Source: an uncultured Candidatus Saccharibacteria bacterium (GTDB lineage Bacteria; Patescibacteriota; Minisyncoccia; Phycocordibacterales; UBA9973). Taken from it: a stretch of DNA of 60,336 bases. The stretch is from contig CAYUQD010000004.1 of the NCBI GenBank assembly GCA_964446965.1, forward strand, positions 1 through 60,336, written 5' to 3'. Below the pieces are notes generated by a model that searched no databases, was not told the origin of the DNA, and saw nothing but the letters and a program-made list of their open reading frames with translations. This document shows positions 3,166-30,284 of the stretch, piece after piece. How positions within the stretch are numbered: the first letter of the stretch is position 1; every line of letters starts with the position of its first letter. A program made the translations under genes and the position numbers.

Positions 3166-3897
3166 ATGCATATAGATATTTTATTAGAAACACAAAATCT
3201 TCTCATCATCAACAAACCTTCCGGTCTCCGCACCCATGGGGATGGCAAGTCTGATGTACCAACTGTCGTTGACTGGATCTTGAAAGAGCGACCAGAGATC
3301 GCTGGAGTAGGGGAGAACATGGAAGTAGATGGCAAGGTCATCGAGCGCCCGGGTATCGTTCATCGACTCGATGAAGAGACATCGGGGTGTCTGGTCATTG
3401 CCAAGACCCAAGAAGCATTTGAATATTTGAAGCAGCAATTTAAGGATCGCCTCGTCGAGAAGGAATACCACGCGTTTGTCTGGGGGCACTTCAAGGAGAG
3501 TACAGGAATCGTCGATGCACCGATCGGGCGAAGTGTTGGTGACTTTAGACGATGGCAGGCAGGGCGCGGTATCAGAGGAGAAGTCCGCGAGGCTGTGACC
3601 AAGTGGGAAGCTATCGATCAGTTCGAAGACGAGCAAGGGGAGCGGTTCACATTGGTACACCTCTGGCCCAAGACTGGCCGTACGCATCAACTACGCGTCC
3701 ATATGAAGTATCTCCAGCGCCCCATTGTCTCGGACTCGCTCTATGCCGCATCCAAACCCCAAGCCTTGGGATTCTCCCGAGTAGCGCTCCATGCACGCAC
3801 CATATCCTTCGTCGCTCCTGAGGGGCAACAGGTCGCTGTCAGCGCCCCATATCCGGCTGATTTTGAGCAAGCTATTGCAAAGTATACTAAAGCGTGA
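3166..3897 (+). CDS. RluA-family pseudouridine synthase (no S4 domain)
   Basis: Catalytic motif HRLDEETSGCLVIAKT. C-terminal TGRTHQLRVH. Confidence 0.85.
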   Translation: MHIDILLETQNLLIINKPSGLRTHGDGKSDVPTVVDWILKERPEIAGVGENMEVDGKVIERPGIVHRLDEETSGCLVIAKTQEAFEYLKQQFKDRLVEKEYHAFVWGHFKESTGIVDAPIGRSVGDFRRWQAGRGIRGEVREAVTKWEAIDQFEDEQGERFTLVHLWPKTGRTHQLRVHMKYLQRPIVSDSLYAASKPQALGFSRVALHARTISFVAPEGQQVAVSAPYPADFEQAIAKYTKA

Positions 3898-3912
3898 TAG
3901 ATTGGAGGCCTT

Positions 3913-4326
3913 ATGGCAGACTCATTTTCTCCCGTTGATATCGAAGCACGAAAGGCACTTCCGTTTGTGTCAGGTGACACTGTGCGCGTATGGTCAAAGA
4001 TCGAGGACAAGGGCAAATACCGCCTTCAGGCCTTTGAAGGACTCGTCCTCGCCCGCAAGCATGGTACCGGTCCCTCTGCGACATTCACTGTCCGCAAGGT
4101 GTCCAATGCTGTTGGTGTAGAGCGTATTTTCCCACTATACTCACCAATGATCGACAAGATCGAGATCACCAAGAAGGCAAAGACTCGTCGCAGCAAGCTC
4201 TACTACATCCGCGACAAGGCGGCAAAGGAAGTTCGTCGCAAGATGAAGCAGATCCTCGGAGGCAAGATCGCTCCAGAAGCAGAGATCGCCGAGACCGAGA
4301 CTGTCGTCGAAGCTCAAGCAGAATAG
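3913..4326 (+). CDS. rplS: 50S ribosomal protein L19
   Basis: GDTVRVW.KI.....RLQAFEGLVLARKH.G...TFTVRK...GVERIFPLYSP.IDKIEI is the L19 signature. Confidence 0.9.
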   Translation: MADSFSPVDIEARKALPFVSGDTVRVWSKIEDKGKYRLQAFEGLVLARKHGTGPSATFTVRKVSNAVGVERIFPLYSPMIDKIEITKKAKTRRSKLYYIRDKAAKEVRRKMKQILGGKIAPEAEIAETETVVEAQAE

Positions 4327-21740: not shown

Positions 21741-23252
21741 ATGACAATGAATATGAAATTATCGAAAACAGACTTTTTAATATGTCTCGACTGTGCAAAG
21801 AATGCATGGCTCAAGATACATAAGCCCGATATTTATAAAAAATATCCGTTGTCTTCTTTTGAATTGAACATTATCAATACAGGCAATCAAATTGACGAAC
21901 TCGCACGGGGCTTATTTCCGGATGGAGTGACTGTCGAATCACGCGACGATACGGAATTCACTAATAAATTTCTTTCAAATAAGACACCAGTAATTTATCA
22001 ACCAGTTTTTACTACAGATAAATTCATTACCGCCTCGGATATTTTTGTATGGAATGTAGGCACAGGTGTGTACGATCTCTATGAAGTAAAATCATCTACT
22101 GCCTCTGATGAGGGAGGGGGACGCAAAACTGAAGAATACTTGGTAGATATGGCATTTCAGAAAGTCATACTCAATGACTTGGGTATTCAAATCGGGACCA
22201 CGAGTCTCATTCGTCTAAATAAAGAATACGTGCGAATGGGAGATATTAATCTACAGGAACTTTTCTTTATCGAAAACCTCACTGACCAAGTGAATGAAAA
22301 ACTTGAAGAGATAAAGCAAAAGATGGAAGGGGTTTACGAATATTTTGTGAAAGAAGCTGAACCTGTCGGACACTGTGATTGTATTATGAAAGGTTGGAAT
22401 TCTCACTGCACGACTTCAGGCCACTCTAATTCTGATCTTCCAGAATATCCTGTTCATGCTATATCTCGTATTCATAAGAAAAAACTGGCAGAGTTGGTTG
22501 ATAGTAATATTTTCAGCATTCACGATGTGCCGGACGACTTTGAATTATCTGATAATCAGCGCAGGCAAGTAGATACGGCGCAGTCGGGCAAGGAATATAT
22601 TGATAAAGATGGTATATCAGATTTTTTGCAGACTATGCAGTACCCACTCGCTTTTCTCGATTATGAAACATACCCATCTGCAATTCCCAAGTACAACGGC
22701 TACAGGCCGTATCAGCAAATTCCGTTTCAGTTTTCACTTCATGTGATTGAAGCGCCGAACGGTGAGTCCGTCCATTATGATTTTATTTACACTGATCAAG
22801 TTTGTCCGGACGAACATTTTGCCGAAGCATTAAAAAAGCATTTACCAAAAACAGGTAGTGTTGTTGTCTGGAATCAGAAATTTGAAAAAGGCATCAACGA
22901 ACAGCTAGGGGAACACTTGCCAGGGTATAAGGATTTTATGGAGGAAGTTAATGTCCGTGTCGTTGATTTAATGATTCCATTCTATGGTAAAACAACGATG
23001 TACGATCATCCTGAATTTAAGGGTAGTGCATCGATCAAGTATGTTTTACCCGCTCTTGTCCCGACTTTGTCCTACAAAAAAATGCATATTCAAGAGGGTG
23101 GAACTGCATCAGATACATGGAACCGTATCGTGTCCGGTGAGTATTCAGAAGAAGATAAAAATATGAAGATACAGGCACTCAAGGATTATTGTCATCTTGA
23201 TACTTTGGCGATGGTTGAAATTTGGCGAGTTTTGAACAGCTCATCATCCTAG
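21741..23252 (+). CDS. DUF2779-family protein (N-terminal Cas4/RecB-like nuclease fold, C-terminal exonuclease-like fold)
   Basis: LSKTDFL..LDC.KNAWL, YDLYEVKSST, and FLDYETYPSAIPKYNGYRPYQQIPFQFSLHV match the DUF2779 pattern. Confidence 0.7.
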   Translation: MTMNMKLSKTDFLICLDCAKNAWLKIHKPDIYKKYPLSSFELNIINTGNQIDELARGLFPDGVTVESRDDTEFTNKFLSNKTPVIYQPVFTTDKFITASDIFVWNVGTGVYDLYEVKSSTASDEGGGRKTEEYLVDMAFQKVILNDLGIQIGTTSLIRLNKEYVRMGDINLQELFFIENLTDQVNEKLEEIKQKMEGVYEYFVKEAEPVGHCDCIMKGWNSHCTTSGHSNSDLPEYPVHAISRIHKKKLAELVDSNIFSIHDVPDDFELSDNQRRQVDTAQSGKEYIDKDGISDFLQTMQYPLAFLDYETYPSAIPKYNGYRPYQQIPFQFSLHVIEAPNGESVHYDFIYTDQVCPDEHFAEALKKHLPKTGSVVVWNQKFEKGINEQLGEHLPGYKDFMEEVNVRVVDLMIPFYGKTTMYDHPEFKGSASIKYVLPALVPTLSYKKMHIQEGGTASDTWNRIVSGEYSEEDKNMKIQALKDYCHLDTLAMVEIWRVLNSSSS

Positions 23253-23976: not shown

Positions 23977-24048
23977 ACGAACCGCACACTACCGAGAAGG
24001 TCCGATGAAGTCTAGTGATCATTGAAAAACTCTTCTCAAAAATATAAA

Positions 24049-25352
24049 TTTGCGAATGGGTACCGACCGTGGTTGTTGTGCGTGCGCCTCGGCACATAAC
24101 ACATCATGAAAAACACACTATCGTACGCCGATTACCAAAAGAAAATGAAAGAGCTCAAGACTCCGGAGGATATCGCCGCATTCGCGCAGGAGCTCATCGC
24201 TCCCATGCTCGGCAATATCCAGAATGTGTCGGCACTAGAAGCGGTTGAGGAAGAAATCGAGGAACCGTTCGTTCCCGAACAGCCGAAAGCGGTTGCACCC
24301 GTTAAAAAGTACAACCGCAGGAATCCGTATCAGTTGGAAGTTGTCAGTCCGTGGCACGATGTCGCGGGAAACGACACCGAGGCTATGGTCATTGATCTTT
24401 ATGCAAAGGGTCTGACCACTCGAGACATTGTAAACCATCTCAAACGCAGTCATGGTATTGAAATGTCTCAACCGAACGTATCCACGATCACCGACAAAGT
24501 ATTTCCGTTGGTGAAAGAATGGCAGTCGCGTGCGCTCTCGTCATGCTATCCGATCATGTATCTCGATGGCATGCACTTCAAGGTTCGCGAGGCGGGGAAG
24601 ATCGCATCCAAGGTTGCGTACATCGCCCTTGGCATAAACAACTACGGACAAAAAGAGGTCCTTGGCATTTGGGTTTCAGAAACTGAAGGAGCGAAGTTCT
24701 GGATGCATGTCTTGAACGATCTGAAGAACCGCGGCGTGGATGACATTCTCATTGCATGCGTTGATGGGCTGAAAGGATTTCCCGAAGCAATCAAAGCAAT
24801 GTATCCGCACACTGATGTTCAAGTCTGTGTCGTCCATCAGATCAGACACACGGTCATGTTCATCGCATCCAAAGACAAGGACAAGTTCTGCGACGAGCTA
24901 AAAACGATCTACACCGCGCCGTCCGAGGAAGCGGGATTGGATGCACTGAAGACAATGCAGGAAAATTGGCCGATGTATCAGGTGTACCTCAAAAGTTGGG
25001 AAACGCGTTGGGCGGACCTCGCGCCGTTCTTTAGCTACCCGCAAGCAGTCCGAAAGACGGTCTACACGACAAATGCGATCGAAAATCTGAACCGTCAGTT
25101 CCGAAAGGTTACCAAGACGACACAGATATTCCCGCACGACGATGCGCTCTTGAAACTCCTATGGCTCGCGCAAGCCGATATCACCCAGAACTGGCAGCTT
25201 GCTGTCCGCAACTGGGGAGAGGTGATGGCGCAGCTTAGTATTATGTTCCCGGACCGCGTTCAGTTTTAGCAGTTAAAATATCTCTGAAGAAATTATAATC
25301 AATTAATAAAGTCCGAGCGTTACGCACTTCGATTGGTCGGTACTCGGCAAAG
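24049..25352 (+). mobile_element. IS256-family insertion sequence (~1.3 kb)
   Basis: Imperfect terminal inverted repeats: tttgcgaatgggtaccgacc..gtgcgt..cctcggcac (left) against the reverse complement of gtccgagcgttacgcac..ggtcggtactcggcaaag (right). Single transposase ORF. No clear target-site duplication. Confidence 0.6.
24106..25269 (+). CDS. IS256-family (mutator-type) transposase
   Basis: YPIMYLDGMHFKVRE, ALGIN..G.KEVLGIW, ACVDGLKGFPEAI...P...VQVCVVHQIRH, YTTNAIENLNRQFRK. Confidence 0.9.
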   Translation: MKNTLSYADYQKKMKELKTPEDIAAFAQELIAPMLGNIQNVSALEAVEEEIEEPFVPEQPKAVAPVKKYNRRNPYQLEVVSPWHDVAGNDTEAMVIDLYAKGLTTRDIVNHLKRSHGIEMSQPNVSTITDKVFPLVKEWQSRALSSCYPIMYLDGMHFKVREAGKIASKVAYIALGINNYGQKEVLGIWVSETEGAKFWMHVLNDLKNRGVDDILIACVDGLKGFPEAIKAMYPHTDVQVCVVHQIRHTVMFIASKDKDKFCDELKTIYTAPSEEAGLDALKTMQENWPMYQVYLKSWETRWADLAPFFSYPQAVRKTVYTTNAIENLNRQFRKVTKTTQIFPHDDALLKLLWLAQADITQNWQLAVRNWGEVMAQLSIMFPDRVQF

Positions 25353-25426
25353 GTCGCGGCATGGTCCGTGGCCTTTTGCGTATAAAAGCAGGGGACCCGT
25401 GGTTTCCAAGGCTATATAGCTATATA

Positions 25427-25455
25427 TTGACTTTTAAGGTGAATAGTGCTATAAT
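25427..25455 (+). promoter_or_regulatory. Sigma70-like promoter upstream of the DGR target gene
   Basis: TTGACT, 17-nt spacer, TATAAT (25427-25432 and 25450-25455). Confidence 0.5.
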
Positions 25456-25534
25456 ATACCCAGAATACAGTACACCTCTCGCTGTCTTCAATATACCGAG
25501 TAGAGGCAACTTTCTTTCACAAAAAACAAATAAA

Positions 25535-26173
25535 ATGAGAACAAAAACTCTCGAGCAGAACACGGCGCAAGATTTCGCTGGACTGCAAATCGACCAGTTG
25601 AGCAAATTGCGCAACGGCAACATGACCTTTCAACAGGTGAAATGGTTTAACAACCTTTCGTTTGAGCAAAGGGAAGCACTGATGGGCAAGCAACCTGAAA
25701 AGGCACTTATCCTGAAATTGATTTCCGAAGCACACGAAATCATCATTGAAACCTGTGACGGTTCCCAAACTATTGCAACTGCCAAAGAAACCTTTAAATC
25801 AGGAATCGATGGTGACTTCAAAAACTGGGGTACCAACAAGGCCGGTGCATCAACTGAAAAAACATCAGTACAGGTTCACGAGATGGTAAAGGATGCCACG
25901 TTCGCACAAATGTTCGGCTCCCTCGGGACCGATCTGGACAAACTGTGTCTGACACAACACCAGATAAAAACATTTTGCGAGGTTCACAAAGAGTGGCTCC
26001 GCAAAGACGGATACGCAACATTCTTCCTGTTTAAGGTTGATGAGCAATTCTTCGTTGCCTACGTGCTCGTGTACTCTGGCGGCTTGCGCGTCAGCGTGTA
26101 CCGGTTCTGGAACGACCTCGTTTGGAATGCCGAGTACTCCCATCGTATGGTGGTTCCGCAACTGACCGCTTAG
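25535..26173 (+). CDS. DGR variable (target) protein, 212 aa, no obvious signal peptide, VR at the C-terminus
   Basis: ATG 25535 lies downstream of the promoter. The last ~43 codons carry the VR. The tracked 25361 start would span the promoter and the IS end. Confidence 0.7.
26045..26165 (+). repeat. DGR variable repeat (VR)
   Basis: 121-nt match to 26486-26606. Differences fall on TR adenines, apart from one G/T site. Confidence 0.85.
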
Positions 26174-26202
26174 AACCTTGTTCTACTGACACTTATTTTC
26201 TT

Positions 26203-26247
26203 AATCCCTTTGATTCTTCCGAATTGAAGGGATTTTTTTATTTTTAT
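26203..26247 (+). terminator. Intrinsic terminator after the DGR target gene
   Basis: aatccctt-(16 nt)-aagggatt followed by tttttttattttt. Confidence 0.65.
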
Positions 26248-26485
26248 ATAATGTCCGGGCAGTGGTGCGGGTATGTCGCGGTTATGGCTGCGGGATCACG
26301 ATTGCTCAAAATCATCATCGAGAATTTTGCCGGCTACGGCTATCAAAAGAGTGAGGGTTGTTTTGGAACAAAAAACTTTTCAGTTGGTGTGATGCGCTTG
26401 CGGACTTCTAGGTCCCGAATAAAATACAGCACGATCCCTGATGGAAACATGCTTGGATCGGCAGTGGTAGAGATGGTGCATCACA

Positions 26486-26606
26486 CAATTCTTCGTTGCC
26501 AACGTGAACGTGAACTCTGACGGCTTGAACGTCAACGTGAACCGGTTCGAGAACGACAACGTTTGGAATGCCGAGTACTCCCATCGTATGGTGGTTCCGA
26601 AAATGA
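26486..26606 (+). repeat. DGR template repeat (TR)
   Basis: Non-coding copy with 8 in-register AAC codons: gcc AAC gtg AAC gtg AAC tct GAC ggc ttg AAC gtc AAC gtg AAC cgg ttc GAG AAC gac AAC. Confidence 0.85.
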
Positions 26607-26628
26607 GGGTTTTCTCCTCTCGGATTTA

Positions 26629-26970
26629 TTATCTGGGAGGAGTTTTCTTTTCAAGCCCCTTTCTCCATCCGCCGAGCATTTTTCCTATCTCATCCAACTG
26701 TTCGGAGAGCGTTGCGTACTTGTCATTCGGCAGGCATTTGTTTTCCCATGCCAATTGCAAAAAGAATTTCACCCCGTCGAGCTTTGATATTGAAATGGTG
26801 ATGCGGTTTATCTTCTGATCACCCGAAAGGTATAGGGATACAAAAATGTTTTCTAACAATTCTAAAAAGTAGCTATCAATCTTGCCACCAAGGTTGTGAC
26901 GATAGGTCTTTGGAAAATCCGCCAGTAATTTAAACCAGACTGAATACGATTCTTTCGCTTTTACGAGCAC
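26629..26970 (-). CDS. avd: Avd-like four-helix-bundle protein (23S rRNA IVS protein family), antisense to TR and RT
   Basis: KESYSVWFKLLADFPKTYRHNLGGKIDSYFLELLENI....KLDGVKFFLQLAWENKCL...Y..L.EQLDEIGKMLGGW. GTG 26970 preferred as start; ATG 27108 would overlap the RT start. Confidence 0.6.
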   Translation of the reverse strand: MLVKAKESYSVWFKLLADFPKTYRHNLGGKIDSYFLELLENIFVSLYLSGDQKINRITISISKLDGVKFFLQLAWENKCLPNDKYATLSEQLDEIGKMLGGWRKGLEKKTPPR

Positions 26971-26981
26971 TGTAGGTGTTC

Positions 26982-26990
26982 GGGGGGGGG
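26982..26990. repeat. Homopolymeric G9 (C9 on the avd strand)
   Basis: cggggggggg read directly. It lies between the avd GTG start and the RT start, or inside avd if ATG 27108 is used. Confidence 0.9.
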
Positions 26991-27019
26991 TAAATTTATA
27001 GGCATAGTAATTGGATAAA

Positions 27020-28042
27020 ATGTATATGAAAAAATTCGGAAACTCGTATAACAATATCATAACGACCTCAAATTTGCTCCGGGCGTGGGAAGAGTTTTTG
27101 GCAGGCAAAAAGAACCGGGCTGATGTCGCTGCATTTCAGTATCGACTCATGAACAATATCTGCGATCTGCATCAGGAACTTGCCGATAAAACATACAGGC
27201 ACGGTGCGTACCACGCATTCAACATCTCCGATCCAAAGCCGAGGAATATTCACAAGGCTACGGTCCGGGACCGATTACTGCATCATTTGCTCCACGCTGA
27301 AATGTATCCGTACTTCGACAAGAAGTTTATTTACGATTCGTATTCATGCCGTATCAATAAGGGTACGCACAAATCCATGGATCGTTTCAGGGATTTCGGC
27401 CGCATCGTTTCCAAGAATGACACTCGCGCATGTTGGGTCCTGAAGTGCGACATCAGGAAGTTCTTCGCCAATATCGACCATGCCATTCTGAAGGAGATAC
27501 TTGCGCGGCACATCGAGGATACTGACCTCTTGCAACTGCTCGGGCATATCATTGATAGCTTTTCGACGCAGGGAAGGACTGACGTTGGGTTGCCACTAGG
27601 GAACCTCACAAGTCAGTTACTGGTAAACGTCTACATGAACGAATTTGATCATTTCATGAAGCGGACGCTCAAGGTTACCCACTATATCCGTTACGCCGAT
27701 GACTTTGCCATTCTCCACCAGGACCCGAGCTATCTAGCGAGCCTTATTCCGCAAATCTCCGATTTCCTTGAGACCAAGCTGAAACTGTCATTGCACCCTG
27801 ACAAGGTATTCATCAAAACCCTCGCCTCGGGCGTTGATTTCTTGGGATGGGTGCATTTCCCGCATCATCGAGTTTTGCGTACTGCAACGAAACGGCGAAT
27901 GTTTGCCAACCCAGGCATTTACGCTGCCGATGAGGCTGTCGTGAATTCATACCGAGGGCTACTGTCGCATGGCGATGGATACAAGTTGGTCCGGACGATC
28001 GAGGACATTTCGGCGAACGTGCCATCGCCTGAAATCGGCTGA
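27020..28042 (+). CDS. DGR reverse transcriptase
   Basis: GLPLGNLTSQLLVNVYMNEFDHFMK (DGR-type motif 4 ending in SQ), YIRYADDF (YxDD), RNIHKATVRDRLLHH. No maturase or endonuclease domain. Confidence 0.9.
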   Translation: MYMKKFGNSYNNIITTSNLLRAWEEFLAGKKNRADVAAFQYRLMNNICDLHQELADKTYRHGAYHAFNISDPKPRNIHKATVRDRLLHHLLHAEMYPYFDKKFIYDSYSCRINKGTHKSMDRFRDFGRIVSKNDTRACWVLKCDIRKFFANIDHAILKEILARHIEDTDLLQLLGHIIDSFSTQGRTDVGLPLGNLTSQLLVNVYMNEFDHFMKRTLKVTHYIRYADDFAILHQDPSYLASLIPQISDFLETKLKLSLHPDKVFIKTLASGVDFLGWVHFPHHRVLRTATKRRMFANPGIYAADEAVVNSYRGLLSHGDGYKLVRTIEDISANVPSPEIG

Positions 28043-28098
28043 ACGAGGGGGTTGAAAATGTGAAGGGGGACAAAGTCTCGAATGCGGTTTGAAGAGCT

Positions 28099-28131
28099 CA
28101 CACGGGGCAAAATACGCGCGAATTATGCCAA
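28099..28131. repeat. Copy B of the ~33-nt direct repeat
   Basis: See copy A at 23726-23758. About 27 of 33 positions are identical by hand alignment. Confidence 0.7.
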
Positions 28132-28277
28132 TTGTAATTCCTTCTTCTTGTCGGCAATCAGCCTTAGTTTCTCTCGTAAAATTTGCATATACCCCTCGTC
28201 GAGAAGTATAGTTAGAAGGTCATTCTGACTCTGCCCCAATAATCCATAAGAGAGTATTTGTTTGCTACAATTCTCTC

Positions 28278-28673
28278 ATGTCATCATTTGAATCATTCCC
28301 AGGCAAAGTTGAAAAAGCACAAGTAATCGAAGCTTATAAAAAACTAATTGAAAAAGGTATAACCAACCCCTACGATTACAAAGAAACCGATACGGATGCA
28401 AAAATAGCGAATGATTTGTGTACAAAGTATTTCGAACAATTGGACCAAAGCGCAGAAGTTGATCCAACATTGAAACATCGAGTGAATTTCGAGAAAACAT
28501 TCTTTTACCTTGACGCCGGATTTACTGACCCAGATTATGTAGAAGAAGTGTTAGTGGAATGGGTTCCAGAAGATCTCGCAGAAGCTGAGGAATCAGATCC
28601 GGCACTTGCACAAGAGATGAAAGAAAAAATTGCTCATTACAAAGCAATACTACTCCCTGATCTCAAGGAATAA
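28278..28673 (+). CDS. Hypothetical acidic protein
   Basis: 131-aa ORF, AT-richer than the following genes. May still belong to the island. Confidence 0.45.
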   Translation: MSSFESFPGKVEKAQVIEAYKKLIEKGITNPYDYKETDTDAKIANDLCTKYFEQLDQSAEVDPTLKHRVNFEKTFFYLDAGFTDPDYVEEVLVEWVPEDLAEAEESDPALAQEMKEKIAHYKAILLPDLKE

Positions 28674-28778
28674 AATTTGAAAATTCTCCCAAAAGTGCTA
28701 TAACATCCTGACAAGGACGTGTTCTATACTCCAAGGCAAGTATGACGCTAGTCATGAACTCGAAGACCTTGTAGGTAT

Positions 28779-30284
28779 ATGAAAACAGTCTCCCTCAAAA
28801 ACATAACGCACGGATTTCTCGAAAAGCCAGTCCTCACTGGTGTCTCTTTCAAATTCACGGATAGTGAGCGCATCTGTATTGTGGGTGATAACGGTACCGG
28901 CAAGTCAACGTTGCTCAAGATCATCGCGGGTGAAATAGAACCCGACAACGGCAGAGTCGAAACGACGGGTCATGTCCGCTACTACTACGTCCCTCAAGAA
29001 TTCCCGCACGACCACCTCACCGAGACAGTCGAACACTTTCTCGAGACCTTCGCTGGCAAGACTTTGCTCAAGAAGGCATTCGCGTTTGGCACTGCGCTCG
29101 GATTTAACCTCGAGAAGCACCTCGCAAAAGAATGTCGACTCCTCTCGGGAGGACAGCAAAAGATCCTCGCGCTCTCTGTCGGTCTCGCGTCGGCCCCTGA
29201 CTTCCTCATGCTCGACGAGCCCGAGAACCACCTCGACATCGTGAGTCGTCTCGAACTCATCAAAGTGTTGCAGCAATATCGCGGTGGTATATTATTCGTC
29301 TCTCACGATCGCCTCATGGTCGACTCAGTCGCAACCAAAGTCGCCGAAGTCACTGGTGGCAAAGCATATATCTCCGAAGGTGGATACCAAGACTACATTG
29401 ACCAGCGACTCTCTCGTATCGCGGGACTCCAACGTGCGTTCGACAACGACTCTCGTCGTATCAAGCAACTCCAAGCCATGCTCCCGATCCTCGAACAAAA
29501 GGCGTTCCGTGGCAAGGACGTACCGACATTCCTCAAGCGCAAAGCCGAGCTCGCAGAGCTCAAGGAAAAGCAAGCAGATAGTCCTCGTGCTCGAGACTCT
29601 CGTACTTCGATCAAGCTCGCACAGAGTACAAGTGCGCTCCACAACGGCAAACTACTGTGTCGTATCGAAGACGCGTCGTTCCGATATCCGGATCGGGCAG
29701 GGGATATCTTTCACGATGTATCATTCGACATTCGCACTGGCAACCATCTCGTCCTGTTGGGCCGCAACGGTACCGGCAAGTCAACATTTCTCAAATCAAT
29801 CACTGGAGAGCTCGCGCTTGGAGCAGGGAGTGTGCGATGGATCGAGGGAGTAACTCGTGCATATTTTGATCAGCACACAGCATTCGATCCTGCCAAGACC
29901 GCAATCGAAGTTATTGTTGAGACGCTCGGACTCACTGATATCAAGGCTCGTGCGGCGCTGGGTGCGATGAAATTTTCAACAGACAAAATGGAGACCAAGA
30001 CTGGCGCGCTCTCTGGAGGTGAACGCATGCGATTGCGGTTTGCGATGGTCTTTGGGGTGAACCCAGACTTCATCATTCTCGACGAGCCGACCAACCACCT
30101 CGACGAAGTCACCTGGCAGATCCTCCTCGATGCATGCAATGCAACCAAGGCGACCATCCTCCTCGTCACCCACGACTTCGAGTTCATTCAAGAACTCAAG
30201 GACAAGCACTTCCTCTTGATCAAAAATCAGACCGTTGTAGAGCGCTACAAAGACCTCGAGGAGATTATTGAAGAACTCAGATAG
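28779..30284 (+). CDS. ABC-F family ATPase (two ABC cassettes, no TM domain)
   Basis: GDNGTGKSTLLK / LSGGQQKILAL / LDEPENHLD, then GRNGTGKSTFLK / LSGGERMRL / LDEPTNHLD. Confidence 0.85.
   Translation: MKTVSLKNITHGFLEKPVLTGVSFKFTDSERICIVGDNGTGKSTLLKIIAGEIEPDNGRVETTGHVRYYYVPQEFPHDHLTETVEHFLETFAGKTLLKKAFAFGTALGFNLEKHLAKECRLLSGGQQKILALSVGLASAPDFLMLDEPENHLDIVSRLELIKVLQQYRGGILFVSHDRLMVDSVATKVAEVTGGKAYISEGGYQDYIDQRLSRIAGLQRAFDNDSRRIKQLQAMLPILEQKAFRGKDVPTFLKRKAELAELKEKQADSPRARDSRTSIKLAQSTSALHNGKLLCRIEDASFRYPDRAGDIFHDVSFDIRTGNHLVLLGRNGTGKSTFLKSITGELALGAGSVRWIEGVTRAYFDQHTAFDPAKTAIEVIVETLGLTDIKARAALGAMKFSTDKMETKTGALSGGERMRLRFAMVFGVNPDFIILDEPTNHLDEVTWQILLDACNATKATILLVTHDFEFIQELKDKHFLLIKNQTVVERYKDLEEIIEELR

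Follow-up and report, generated by a model that had tools for sequence, protein, structure and literature searches.

Does the segment at positions 25427-28042 of the window (the whole 60,336-nt stretch of DNA that was analysed) hold a working diversity-generating retroelement (DGR), and what does it add to the DGRs already catalogued in CPR bacteria? The first-pass annotation had claimed a complete DGR here, and each part of that claim passed: the reverse transcriptase (RT) is of the DGR type, the template repeat (TR) and the variable repeat (VR) differ in an adenine-specific manner, the VR lies at the 3′ end of an ORF, and an Avd gene is present. It had also rightly called the class known in CPR; the architecture is the ‘B3’ order, TR-(avd)-RT, which passages of Wu et al. 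2018 (PMC5758913) report for 90% of CPR DGRs. The window follows this order with the TR on the + strand, avd on the - strand (26629-26970 when counted from its GTG), and the RT on the + strand. The arrangement target(+), avd(-), RT(+) is kept in 38 of the 39 RT-bearing related loci, and the titles of the related contigs name Nomurabacteria, Paceibacterota, Yonathbacteria, Falkowbacteria, and Uhrbacteria. Similarity to the related cassettes starts at about 25415-25425. We regard it as very probable that the whole is an intact chromosomal DGR of the CPR B3 type, working as we propose below. The element class is already catalogued in CPR; the features beyond it are the leader RNA, the fold of the target protein, and a C-run in avd (Table 1).

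Table 1. Positions of the parts of the element in the window, with the structured elements of the putative TR RNA.
Feature	Positions	Strand	Remarks
Promoter-like site of target gene	25427-25455	+	TTGACT-17-TATAAT, TG before the -10 box; 11/12 matches
Target (variable protein) gene	25535-26173	+	212 aa; N-terminal helical part, ~155-aa C-terminal domain (residues 58-212) with the VR
VR	26045-26165	+	TR-homologous part stops at 26158; 26159-26165 (CAACTGA) is the fixed VR-specific 3′ boundary
Hairpin and T-run, putative target-gene terminator	26203-26244	+	conserved in 46 loci
Promoter-like site of TR RNA	26224-26252	+	TTGAAG-17-TATAAT; -10 box conserved in relatives, commonly TGTATAAT
Structured non-coding leader of TR RNA	26259-26485	+	RNAalifold on 46 loci
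Leader P1	26259-63/26301-05	+	
Leader P2	26273-83/26286-96	+	
Leader P3	26307-19/26353-65	+	
Leader P4	26325-35/26338-48	+	
Leader P5	26387-98/26475-86	+	adjoins TR 5′ boundary
Leader P6	26402-05/26412-15	+	
Leader P7	about 26429/26462	+	
TR	26486-26606	+	templating part 26486-26599; 26600-26606 (AAAATGA) is the fixed TR-specific 3′ boundary
3′ hairpin, then GTTTTCTTTT	26614-26651	+	directly 3′ of the TR; looks like an intrinsic terminator
avd	26629-27005	-	stop 26631-26629; conserved body from GTG 26970-26968 (113 aa)
Homopolymer in 5′ coding part of avd	26982-26990		G9 on + strand, C9 on avd strand
DGR RT	27020-28042	+	340 aa from ATG 27020 or 338 aa from ATG 27026; Pfam RVT_1 only
Right end of cassette, conserved	28043-28242		kept in relatives without RT and avd

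DGR RTs have (I/L)GxxxSQ where group II RTs have QGxxxSP, together with a YxDD motif, and carry neither a maturase nor an endonuclease domain. The RT of the window was confirmed to possess the LGNLTSQ and YADD motifs and, with RVT_1 as the sole domain found, to be free of a maturase or endonuclease domain. As judged by similarity search, it does not side with the group II or retron RTs: its best solved relative is the DGR RT of Bordetella phage BPP-1 (bRT; 8ub7_A, E 2.2e-38), with the group II or retron-type RTs about 20 orders worse (group II ~1e-18). Moreover, the residues aligned with F66, R74, I76, G182, and Q187 of bRT are identical, and I181 is replaced by leucine. The best NCBIfam model is a group II RT/maturase (143 bits, against a cut-off of 300), and it covers the RT domain only. 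A group II intron or retron identity was rejected, as the maturase domain is absent, the NCBIfam group II and retron models score far under their cut-offs, and Rfam finds nothing but tRNAs over the window at gathering thresholds, with no group II intron or retron RNA.

How are the two repeats related? A repeat finder returned one repeat family only, an ungapped direct pair of 121 nt with 88% identity, at the same coordinates as first annotated. Base by base, the two copies differ at 15 positions, 14 of which are A in the TR. With 32 A among the 121 nt of the TR, at least 14 of 15 differences would fall on A by chance with P 7.9e-9 (hypergeometric), and the adenine restriction is thus seen in a machine alignment as well. 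The single non-adenine difference, a G in the TR that reads T in the VR (26549/26108), is as it had been described, and the earlier codon count is exact in the VR frame: the changed codons are seven of the eight AAC codons, GAC182, and GAG192. The VR indeed encodes the 3′ end of the 212-aa ORF (residues 171-208), and the TR is non-coding. No TR codon can be converted to a stop by an A substitution, while about 15, and up to ~19, codons can be recoded (8 AAC, 1 AAT, and others), which gives a theoretical repertoire of ~1e15 proteins. Neither tblastn nor a TR scan in which the A positions could match any base found a second VR or a remote target within the window.

At the 3′ end of the repeats, the first-pass annotation stood only in part. 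The two differences at the 3′ edge (26600 and 26603; A in the TR, C in the VR) exist, but they are the same in 10/10 related cassettes, and we therefore take them as fixed boundary differences, putatively of the IMH/IMH* type, rather than products of mutagenesis. Without them, 12 adenine changes and one non-adenine change remain (12/13). The boundary reads CAACTGAC in the VR and AAAATGA in the TR in all ten cassettes, and these fixed differences look, in sequence, as those between IMH and IMH* would. Likewise, the 39-nt 3′ tail is identical in the TR and the VR, but it is not a constant IMH-like block, because the relatives mutate its adenines (codons 198, 200, 201, 203, and 205); only about GGTGGTTCCG is constant across them. 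The tail contains 6 template adenines, and the rest of the VR is substituted at roughly 57%; at that rate an unmutated tail is unlikely, with a chance of about 0.6%, which counts against our best explanation.

Is the element active in its lineage? Across 10 related cassettes, 154 of the 160 TR-VR mismatches fall on TR adenines; the TRs are near-identical and the VRs differ. Relative to the closest cassette, L084, the VR is 14.0% divergent, as compared to 1.6% for the remaining target gene and 1.8% for the TR. Among the cassettes the TR is the most conserved segment (1.8-6.1% divergence, vs. 14-22% for the VR), and the leader diverges by 4.0-9.6%, as compared to 5.4-19.5% for the RT gene. Consistently, in the proteins that share 90% or more identity with the target, the AAC positions are hypervariable and only isolated substitutions are seen outside the VR, and near-identical cassettes from other samples have constant TRs and VRs that differ at TR-adenine positions. 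Near-identical TRs with different VRs in ten cassettes indicate that the lineage is active; for mutagenic retrohoming itself, the different VRs of near-identical cassettes from other samples are indirect evidence.

The ~230-nt segment 5′ of the TR (about 227 nt) is a covarying structured RNA common to the lineage. It has 53 pairs, 45 of them with compensatory changes; 95.1% of the cells are paired, vs. 43-47% when the partners are slid, and none of 500 shuffles gave as good a pairing statistic. A single-sequence fold gives back P1, P2, P5, P6, and P7. On the other side of the TR, the 3′ hairpin has 8 pairs, 5 with compensatory changes, and is followed by a GTTTT that is invariant in 40 loci; the avd stop codon sits in its loop. 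Read on the opposite strand, its U-run codes for the lysines at the C-terminus of Avd, which is a second possible cause of the conservation of this run. By analogy, this hairpin may correspond to the stem-loop that binds Avd in BPP-1 and to the primer strand there. The promoter and terminator calls are consensus matches, and the 4 promoter-like sites in the region do not exceed the shuffle mean of 5.2.

The leader falls into no Rfam family at threshold, and our literature search found no earlier description of this RNA. In being a structured ncRNA that adjoins an RT gene, it resembles the RT-associated Rfam motifs RT-1 to RT-19 treated in passages of Weinberg et al. 2017 (PMC5737381), which identify RT-10 as the BPP-1 spacer; none of the related loci reaches the threshold of any of the RT motifs. 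RT-9 (RF03080) gives a weak full-length match at 26271-26359 (P2 and its surroundings) with a similar GGUUACGGCU loop. We rejected membership of this family, as the score is 19.4 bits, against a gathering threshold of 46.1, with E 0.7-2.5, a match by chance or a very distant one. It was not repeated in another locus (L018), in a narrow search that would have detected it, and RT-9 was absent from 8 whole loci, in a search too large to show 19-bit matches. Pairing of the leader with the 3′ end of the TR, noticed by eye (GAUGG/CCAUC; UUUUGGAAC/GUUCCGAAA), was likewise discarded, since the segments are complementary in the window and not conserved in the relatives.

How does Avd production start? 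[quoted passage not shown] Its orientation on the minus strand, antisense, is a detail that was missing from the first reading. The upstream ATG 27005-27003 (MPINL) is cut off from the body of the gene by the C-run and is one base out of frame here; the run of the window is C9, and only C10 would join this ATG to the Avd frame. The run was found in 37 distinct related cassettes with lengths of C8-C12, and it is kept across cassettes whose RT proteins are as much as about 45% divergent; in L084, a cassette of 97% identity, C11 stands between the same flanks. Of 36 cassettes, 27 have the upstream ATG out of frame and 20 have ‘one C too many’, a bias that would fit programmed recoding as well as random switching. 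In three relatives that lack the run, the start of avd is an in-frame ATG that precedes the same PTV motif by 7-8 codons, and the ATG thus looks like the ancestral avd start. Because the upstream ATG is out of frame at C9, the start of Avd is doubtful. In the window, as in many relatives, an in-frame GTG lies 11 nt past the run, and from the reading frames Avd may be made here from GTG 26970 only, via slippage, or not at all. Our literature search found no paper that ties a C-run to a DGR accessory gene, and the flanks of the G-run gave no match in a metagenome scan. A hairpin at the G-run was rejected as a lineage-wide RNA element, being present in only about half of the loci and showing no clear strand preference (19 vs. 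15).

What protein does the element diversify? The target family is very large in CPR (at least 2,474 sequence clusters). The 561 homologues of about 212 aa begin with MRTKTLEQ, and the public gene call P0125 (270 aa from 25361), which starts upstream of the promoter-like site, is probably too long. The target matched nothing in Pfam, in NCBIfam, or among the PDB sequences, by sequence or by profile search, and exact look-ups of the target and RT proteins of the window returned no record. The C-terminal domain alone was modelled with a pLDDT of 94.5 and a pTM of 0.91. Foldseek with this model against the PDB gave a best E of 0.39, with no C-type lectin in the best 50 matches. Nothing at E below 0.1 came from this search or from those with the full-length model against the PDB and BFVD, where a single human C-type lectin was listed at rank 37 (TM 0.28/0.37). 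The VR-bearing domain, as modelled, was not recognised as a C-type lectin fold, and the confident predicted fold of the target matches no solved structure, C-type lectins included. In the predicted model, the recoded residues occupy alternate positions of a beta-hairpin and the loop after it. Downstream of the gene, the conserved hairpin with its T-run could double, by analogy, as the DNA hairpin downstream of the VR that is used in BPP-1 homing.

We propose that the element works in the following manner. A small RNA of ~390 nt would be transcribed from its own promoter, and would consist of the ~227-nt structured leader, the 114-nt template, and the 3′ hairpin with its U-run. The RT and Avd would copy the template into cDNA, misincorporating opposite the template adenines, and the cDNA would replace the homologous 114 nt at the 3′ end of the target gene. 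Following the Bordetella phage model, an RT-Avd complex would perform both the cDNA synthesis and the homing. The same model suggests that P5, directly at the 5′ boundary of the TR, would stop cDNA synthesis, and that AAAA (26600-26603), the hairpin, and GUUUU would place the primer. With the primer so positioned, the first templated base would be G26599, the last base common to the TR and the VR; this priming involves 3-4 bp of A/U complementarity, without covariation. Finally, the C-run may gate the production of Avd and hence the activity of the DGR.

Could the repeats instead be an ordinary duplication or gene-conversion tract, next to the RT of an unrelated group II intron, retron, or defence system? 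In NCBIfam, the RT scores best against the group II RT/maturase model, with no DGR RT model among the matches, but this score is far under the cut-off and extends over the RT domain only, and neither a maturase nor any extra domain is present. Neither group II intron nor retron RNAs are found by Rfam in the window, adenine-specific mismatches occur in all 10 cassettes, and the target gene, TR, avd, and RT are found together in 38 loci. The adenine bias, the bRT-like RT, the co-travelling of the parts, and the ten cassettes refute this explanation, to which we give practically no credence. A second alternative is that the TR RNA is not a separate small RNA and runs, as in BPP-1, through the antisense avd towards the RT, with the priming and RT-Avd-binding elements 3′ of the TR. 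Indeed, all of the known RT- and Avd-binding RNA elements of BPP-1 are located in the 140-nt spacer 3′ of the TR (bioRxiv 10.1101/2023.10.23.563531, our source for the phage RNA elements). The leakiness of terminators, the coding explanation of the T-run, and the hairpin by the G-run, at the far end of the antisense avd in about half of the relatives, also agree with a long RNA. Nevertheless, the hairpin with compensatory changes in its stem and the GTTTT are found in about 40 loci, the RNA with strong covariation lies on the 5′ side of the TR and is more conserved than the RT gene, and the coding of avd constrains the sequence 3′ of the hairpin. We consider the long RNA unlikely and keep the ~390-nt RNA as our working model.

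A different doubt concerns the present state of the element, which might be intact but off here, with C9 blocking Avd and the present VR as the frozen product of an earlier homing event. Neither the window (C9) nor L084 (C11) has the C10 that would put ATG 27005 in the Avd frame, most of the cassettes likewise have the upstream ATG out of frame, and this start looks ancestral. The in-frame GTG after the run, however, would yield an Avd roughly as long as the family models, and transcriptional or ribosomal slippage on C9-C12 could bring the frame back into register. Metagenome assemblies are error-prone in the length of homopolymers, and near-identical cassettes with different VRs imply that homing was recent. 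An element switched off at this locus appears rather unlikely to us.

Can the three features be read together? As a tentative proposal, one that we hold at somewhat less than even chance, this CPR B3 lineage would combine a 5′ RNA scaffold, C-run-gated Avd, and a target scaffold other than the C-type lectin fold. The scaffold that recruits RT-Avd would lie 5′ of the template, within a self-contained ~390-nt RNA, and not in a 3′ spacer. The C8-C12 run would gate Avd, and with it hypermutation, by phase variation or programmed frameshifting, and one of the largest target families in CPR would diversify a fold other than that of the C-type lectins.

The element is one more CPR DGR beside the tens of thousands catalogued, and its interest lies in these three features. 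The one system in which DGR reverse transcription is understood is that of a phage, with the essential RNA 3′ of the template; for the lineage reported as 90% of CPR DGRs, the strong covariation points to a different layout, and an RNA of ~390 nt can be defined for reconstitution. For the restraint of a hypermutator, a conserved, length-polymorphic homopolymer in an essential accessory gene is a candidate switch. The C-type lectin fold is said to be required of DGR targets if they are to bear massive variation, and the present family (at least 2,474 clusters, with a confident model unlike the solved structures) is a good candidate for a second scaffold. If true, this would run counter to reports that C-type lectin folds are near-universal in annotated DGR VRs, and the 155-residue domain could serve protein engineers as a compact scaffold for diversification.

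How does the element compare with the known systems? It shares the gene order, orientation, and host group of the CPR B3 DGRs (Wu et al. 2018, PMC5758913) and of clade 2 (Roux et al. 2021, PMC8144416), and like the CPR targets in the passages of these papers, the present target has no recognisable domain, signal peptide, or TM segment. In classification the element does not differ from them, and a structured leader, an avd C-run, or the target fold was not found described in these passages. The avd gene resembles the homopolymer-controlled genes, which are governed by slipped-strand phase variation, transcriptional slippage, or +1 frameshifting on CCC_C: a run of 8-12 identical bases is located in the 5′ coding part, its length varies between near-identical sequences, and it sets the reading frame. 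The target has its VR at the C-terminus, as do the C-type lectin variable proteins Mtd, TvpA, AvpA, and TaqVP, and its variable residues are likewise predicted to cluster on a single face of a compact domain. Its secondary-structure elements (strand, helices, four strands) follow an order that loosely resembles that of a C-type lectin domain.

The mechanistic prototype is the BPP-1 DGR (mtd-avd-TR-brt), with which the element shares a homologous RT and an Avd partner. Both have adenine-only changes between the TR and the VR (here with one non-adenine exception), AAC-rich codons barred from becoming stops, and a VR at the 3′ end of the target gene. At the 5′ boundary of the TR, P5 takes the place that the avd:Sp ‘stop’ duplex has in the phage, and a stem-loop just 3′ of the TR is common to both. 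[quoted passage not shown] The TR of the element also appears to have its own promoter and terminator, unlike that of BPP-1. Finally, the BPP-1 DGR resides in a phage and diversifies the tip of a tail fibre, while the present element is chromosomal in a CPR bacterium, and its target is a small, soluble-looking protein without a detectable C-type lectin fold.

The DGR in the window is real and was correctly interpreted: the target gene with its VR, the TR, the Avd-like gene and the RT gene are all present, as the first-pass annotation had claimed. A repeat finder applied to 24000-30000 detects one long direct repeat, which is 121 nt long, ungapped and 88% identical. In a base-by-base comparison of the two copies, 14 of the 15 differences fall on an adenine of the downstream copy, the TR (P = 7.9e-9 for at least 14 of 15, given 32 adenines in 121 nt). 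The upstream copy forms the end of the 212-aa target ORF, and the downstream copy encodes 38 residues in the same frame. Seven of the eight AAC codons are altered in the ORF copy, together with GAC182 and GAG192. The lone non-adenine difference is G26549 in the TR versus T26108 in the VR, within a codon that reads GAG in the TR and TGG in the VR; such changes are rare in nine other cassettes (5 of 147 mismatches). No adenine substitution turns a template codon into a stop, and the theoretical repertoire of the template is about 1e15 proteins. A scan tolerating any base at A detected no further template copy in the whole window. Given this result and our recount of the differences, the earlier description of the repeat pair, including its adenine bias and its altered codons, is therefore accurate.

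Is the VR diversified across the lineage? Ten cassettes have almost identical TRs and different VRs, and at the DNA level 154 of their 160 TR-VR mismatches lie on TR adenines. Between the window and L084, the closest cassette (96.9% identical over 5.2 kb), the VR diverges by 14.0%, the rest of the target gene by 1.6% and the TR by 1.8%. The 90%-identity cluster holding the window's target contains 12 members. Outside residues 176-205 its full-length members show isolated substitutions only, and within this segment the members differ at exactly the AAC-derived positions. The anticipated VR polymorphism at TR-adenine positions is thereby observed, in a comparison across samples rather than within one.

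The 3′ end of the VR requires a different reading from the earlier one. The two differences reported at its edge exist and are A in the TR, but positions 26600 and 26603 are A in all TRs and C in all VRs of the ten cassettes, and thus appear to be fixed boundary differences of the IMH/IMH* type (the non-identical sequences at the 3′ ends of the VR and TR). The last 39 nt (VR 26120-26158, TR 26561-26599) are identical despite six template adenines, and L005 is likewise unmutated. This stretch had been taken for an IMH-like segment, an assignment that fails because in relatives the adenines are altered at codons 198, 200, 201, 203 and 205. At codon 201 (TR 26576-26578), the window has TAC in both its TR and its VR, and most of nine relatives examined have AAC in the TR. 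Both the unmutated stretch and TAC201 could have arisen by gene conversion from VR to TR or by a recent exchange without mutagenesis.

In a search of all solved structures, the RT best matches 8ub7_A, the Bordetella phage DGR RT, over nearly its full length (E 2.2e-38), whereas about 1e-18 is the best value for group II and "retron-type" RTs. This gap of about 20 orders in E, together with the single domain of the protein, bears out the proposed DGR type. Residues F66, R74, I76, G182 and Q187 of bRT, the BPP-1 enzyme, are identical in the aligned window RT, while I181 is replaced by L, and LGNLTSQ...YADD reads as the DGR form of the RT motif. In NCBIfam, the highest scores come from a group II model (143 bits against a cut-off of 300) and from defence RT models, none of which comes near its cut-off. 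[quoted passage not shown] Mechanically called plus-strand ORFs (26122-26520 and 26504-26818) cross the leader, TR and avd antisense, as do public plus-strand gene calls of L085 (4719-4937 and 4906-5337) in the same region. These ORFs and gene calls are very likely spurious, displacing the true minus-strand avd call.

Features of the DGR region. Promoter and terminator entries are consensus matches only, and the region holds no more of them than expected from shuffled sequence.
Feature	Coordinates	Strand	Basis
IS256-family transposase gene, intact-looking, directly upstream of DGR	24106-25269	+	NCBIfam, 331 bits
Near-perfect promoter before target gene	25427-25455	+	consensus scan
Target ORF	25535-26173		
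VR	26045-26165		repeat finder
Terminator	26203-26234		consensus scan
Second promoter-like site	26224-26252		consensus scan; -10 box conserved in 46-locus alignment
Leader RNA	26259-26485		
TR	26486-26606		repeat finder
Hairpin and GTTTTCTTTT directly 3′ of TR	26614-26651		consensus scan
avd ORF	26629-27108	-	Pfam bAvd, 51.6 bits (cut-off 40)
RT ORF	27011/27020-28042	+	RVT_1 the only domain

We compared the window with 79 distinct loci encoding target relatives, drawn from one-genome-per-species contigs, and with 8 further loci added by exact protein look-ups. An RT gene lies within the fetched flanks (up to 4-5 kb) in 39 loci, and the order target(+), avd(-), RT(+) is found in 38 of them. In every RT-bearing locus except L056, a TR follows the target gene at a distance of about 300 nt, with 12-28 mismatches, most of them at A; the best repeat of L056 lies upstream and lacks the adenine bias. 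The taxa given in the contig titles are Nomurabacteria, Paceibacterota, Yonathbacteria, Falkowbacteria, Uhrbacteria and other Patescibacteria. Roughly half of the genes in the target family (those of L003, L004, L008, L010, L011, L014 and about 30 others) lack a TR, avd and RT within 4 kb; they may not be diversified at all, or may be served remotely by a DGR at another site in the genome.

Similarity between cassettes extends from the target promoter (about 25415-25425) to ...CTGACTCTGCCCCA (about 28239-28242); no terminal repeats were seen. Close cassettes (77-90% DNA identity) occupy different genomic neighbourhoods, and the cassette behaves as a discrete block (L084-L087, L005, L006, L007, L015). 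L084 and the window have the upstream IS256 side in common and differ on the downstream side. In L006 and L007, the RT and all or part of avd have been lost, but the final 70-90 nt at the right end persist. The transposase gene itself is outside the DGR. Further upstream, the window encodes a DUF2779 protein (21741-23252) and L084 has a ResIII helicase-like gene. In L058, a LOOT RNA (Rfam, 75.9 bits; 3850-3971) follows the RT gene by about 140 nt, and the L005 cassette lies directly after a 23S-5S rRNA operon (1-1578).

Across 46 distinct loci, the approximately 227 nt from the -10 box of the second promoter to the TR are highly conserved, and RNAalifold predicts eight helices in this leader. 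Of the cells, 95.1% are paired; sliding the partners by 1-3 columns lowers this to 43-47%. Double-change cells number 404, as compared to 51-80 in the slid controls, although the structure was derived from the same alignment and is therefore favoured over these controls. Compensatory double changes occur in 45 of the 53 leader pairs, and none of 500 shuffles reached the observed pairing values. P5, a long-range helix (26387-98 paired to 26475-86), ends precisely at the first base that the TR and VR have in common. In the hairpin 3′ of the TR, five of the eight pairs show compensatory changes, and an invariant GTTTT follows; the avd stop codon is in the hairpin loop, and the 3′ arm and T-run encode the Avd C-terminus on the opposite strand. 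Among cassettes, the leader diverges by 4.0-9.6%, as compared to 5.4-19.5% for the RT gene. No Rfam family reached threshold for the leader in the window or 17 relatives; Rfam RT-9 was rejected as its identity, being a weak match (19.4 vs 46.1 bits) that does not recur elsewhere.

Between the Avd body and the RT start, the plus strand carries nine G (26982-26990), read as C9 on the avd strand. Thirty-seven distinct related cassettes have such a run at the same site, 8-12 long (C10 in 18, C11 in 10, C9 in 6, C12 in 2 and C8 in 1). Its Avd-frame reading is always PPP, usually followed by R-x-P-x-V. In the three cassettes that lack it, avd begins with an in-frame ATG located 7-8 codons ahead of the same PTV motif; the run is therefore an insertion within the 5′ coding part of avd. 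In 36 of the 37 cassettes, the avd strand carries an ATG upstream of the run (4-22 nt away in most, as far as 78 nt in a few), and its frame is open into the run. This ATG is in the Avd frame in 9 cassettes and out of frame in 27, of which 20 would need the loss of one C and 7 the gain of one. In ten cassettes no other in-frame start follows the run; the upstream ATG is in frame in four of these and out of frame in six. The run is flanked identically in the window (C9) and in L084 (C11), and C10 would be in frame.

What could such a run do? The run is a candidate switch for the DGR, through phase variation or recoding, and its length and frame distribution are compatible with slipped-strand phase variation, with transcriptional slippage and with +1 frameshifting on CCC_C. 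In the window, the upstream ATG is at 27005-27003 on the minus strand, and avd translation could alternatively start from an in-frame GTG (26970-26968), 11 nt past the run. Homopolymer assembly errors may have inflated the length variation; their having created the run itself is excluded. Our literature search found no paper tying DGRs to such a run.

A word-indexed search yielded 561 target relatives, almost all of 205-225 aa and none with a Pfam domain; an exhaustive profile search yielded 2,474 clusters (50% identity) at E up to 1e-3, and 936 at E up to 1e-30. The conserved part spans residues about 53-211. A few proteins, among them P0155 (476 aa), P0156 (560 aa), P0157 and P0158, carry two or three tandem copies of a VR-bearing domain of about 155 residues, and ten multi-copy proteins have no Pfam domain over the conserved part. 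The public target call, P0125, has 270 aa from ATG 25361, upstream of the target promoter-like site. The listed homologues cluster near 212 aa and the most similar ones begin MRTKTLEQ (25535), so the longer call (25361-25534 extra) is probably wrong.

AlphaFold2 gave a pLDDT of 86.5 for the full-length target, and of 94.5 (pTM 0.91) for residues 58-212 alone. In the model, the variable residues alternate on two adjacent predicted strands (176, 178, 180 and 185, 187, 189) and continue in the turn (182) and the following loop (192-203), thus forming one face of a predicted β-hairpin plus loop. Foldseek detected no PDB match better than E 0.34-0.39, the TM for the domain model being at most 0.26, and, for the full-length model, nothing with E below 0.1 in the viral library. 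The 50 best PDB matches of the domain model include no C-type lectin, and among those of the full-length model a single C-type lectin, a human one, is listed 37th (TM 0.28/0.37). A C-type lectin fold is thus not supported, as judged from a predicted model and one search method. Roux et al. (PMC8144416) anticipated new C-type lectin variants for CPR targets of this kind, and a 2024 survey (PMC11661182) suggested other domains for some VRs.

The window element is a typical member of a catalogued CPR DGR lineage. Its class was already known in CPR, as had been noted, and it matches the architecture that Wu et al. 2018 (PMC5758913) named B3, TR-(avd)-RT; Roux et al. 2021 describe a DGR clade 2 confined to Patescibacteria, with targets lacking recognisable domains. 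The value of the locus lies in the lineage-wide features revealed by comparison: a putative 5′ RNA scaffold, the avd C-run, and a target fold not detectably C-type lectin. In phage BPP-1, the RT/Avd-binding, priming and stop elements are in the 140-nt spacer 3′ of the TR and 20 nt upstream (10.1101/2023.10.23.563531). We propose that the hairpin 3′ of the TR may be the counterpart of the BPP-1 Avd-binding stem-loop, and that P5 could stop cDNA synthesis. AAAA at 26600-26603 (AAAC or CAAC in most relatives) might pair with the GUUUU after the hairpin, and the first templated base would then be G26599, the last base of the TR-VR homology. The conserved RNA structure of the window lineage lies 5′ of the TR, whereas the BPP-1 elements are chiefly 3′.
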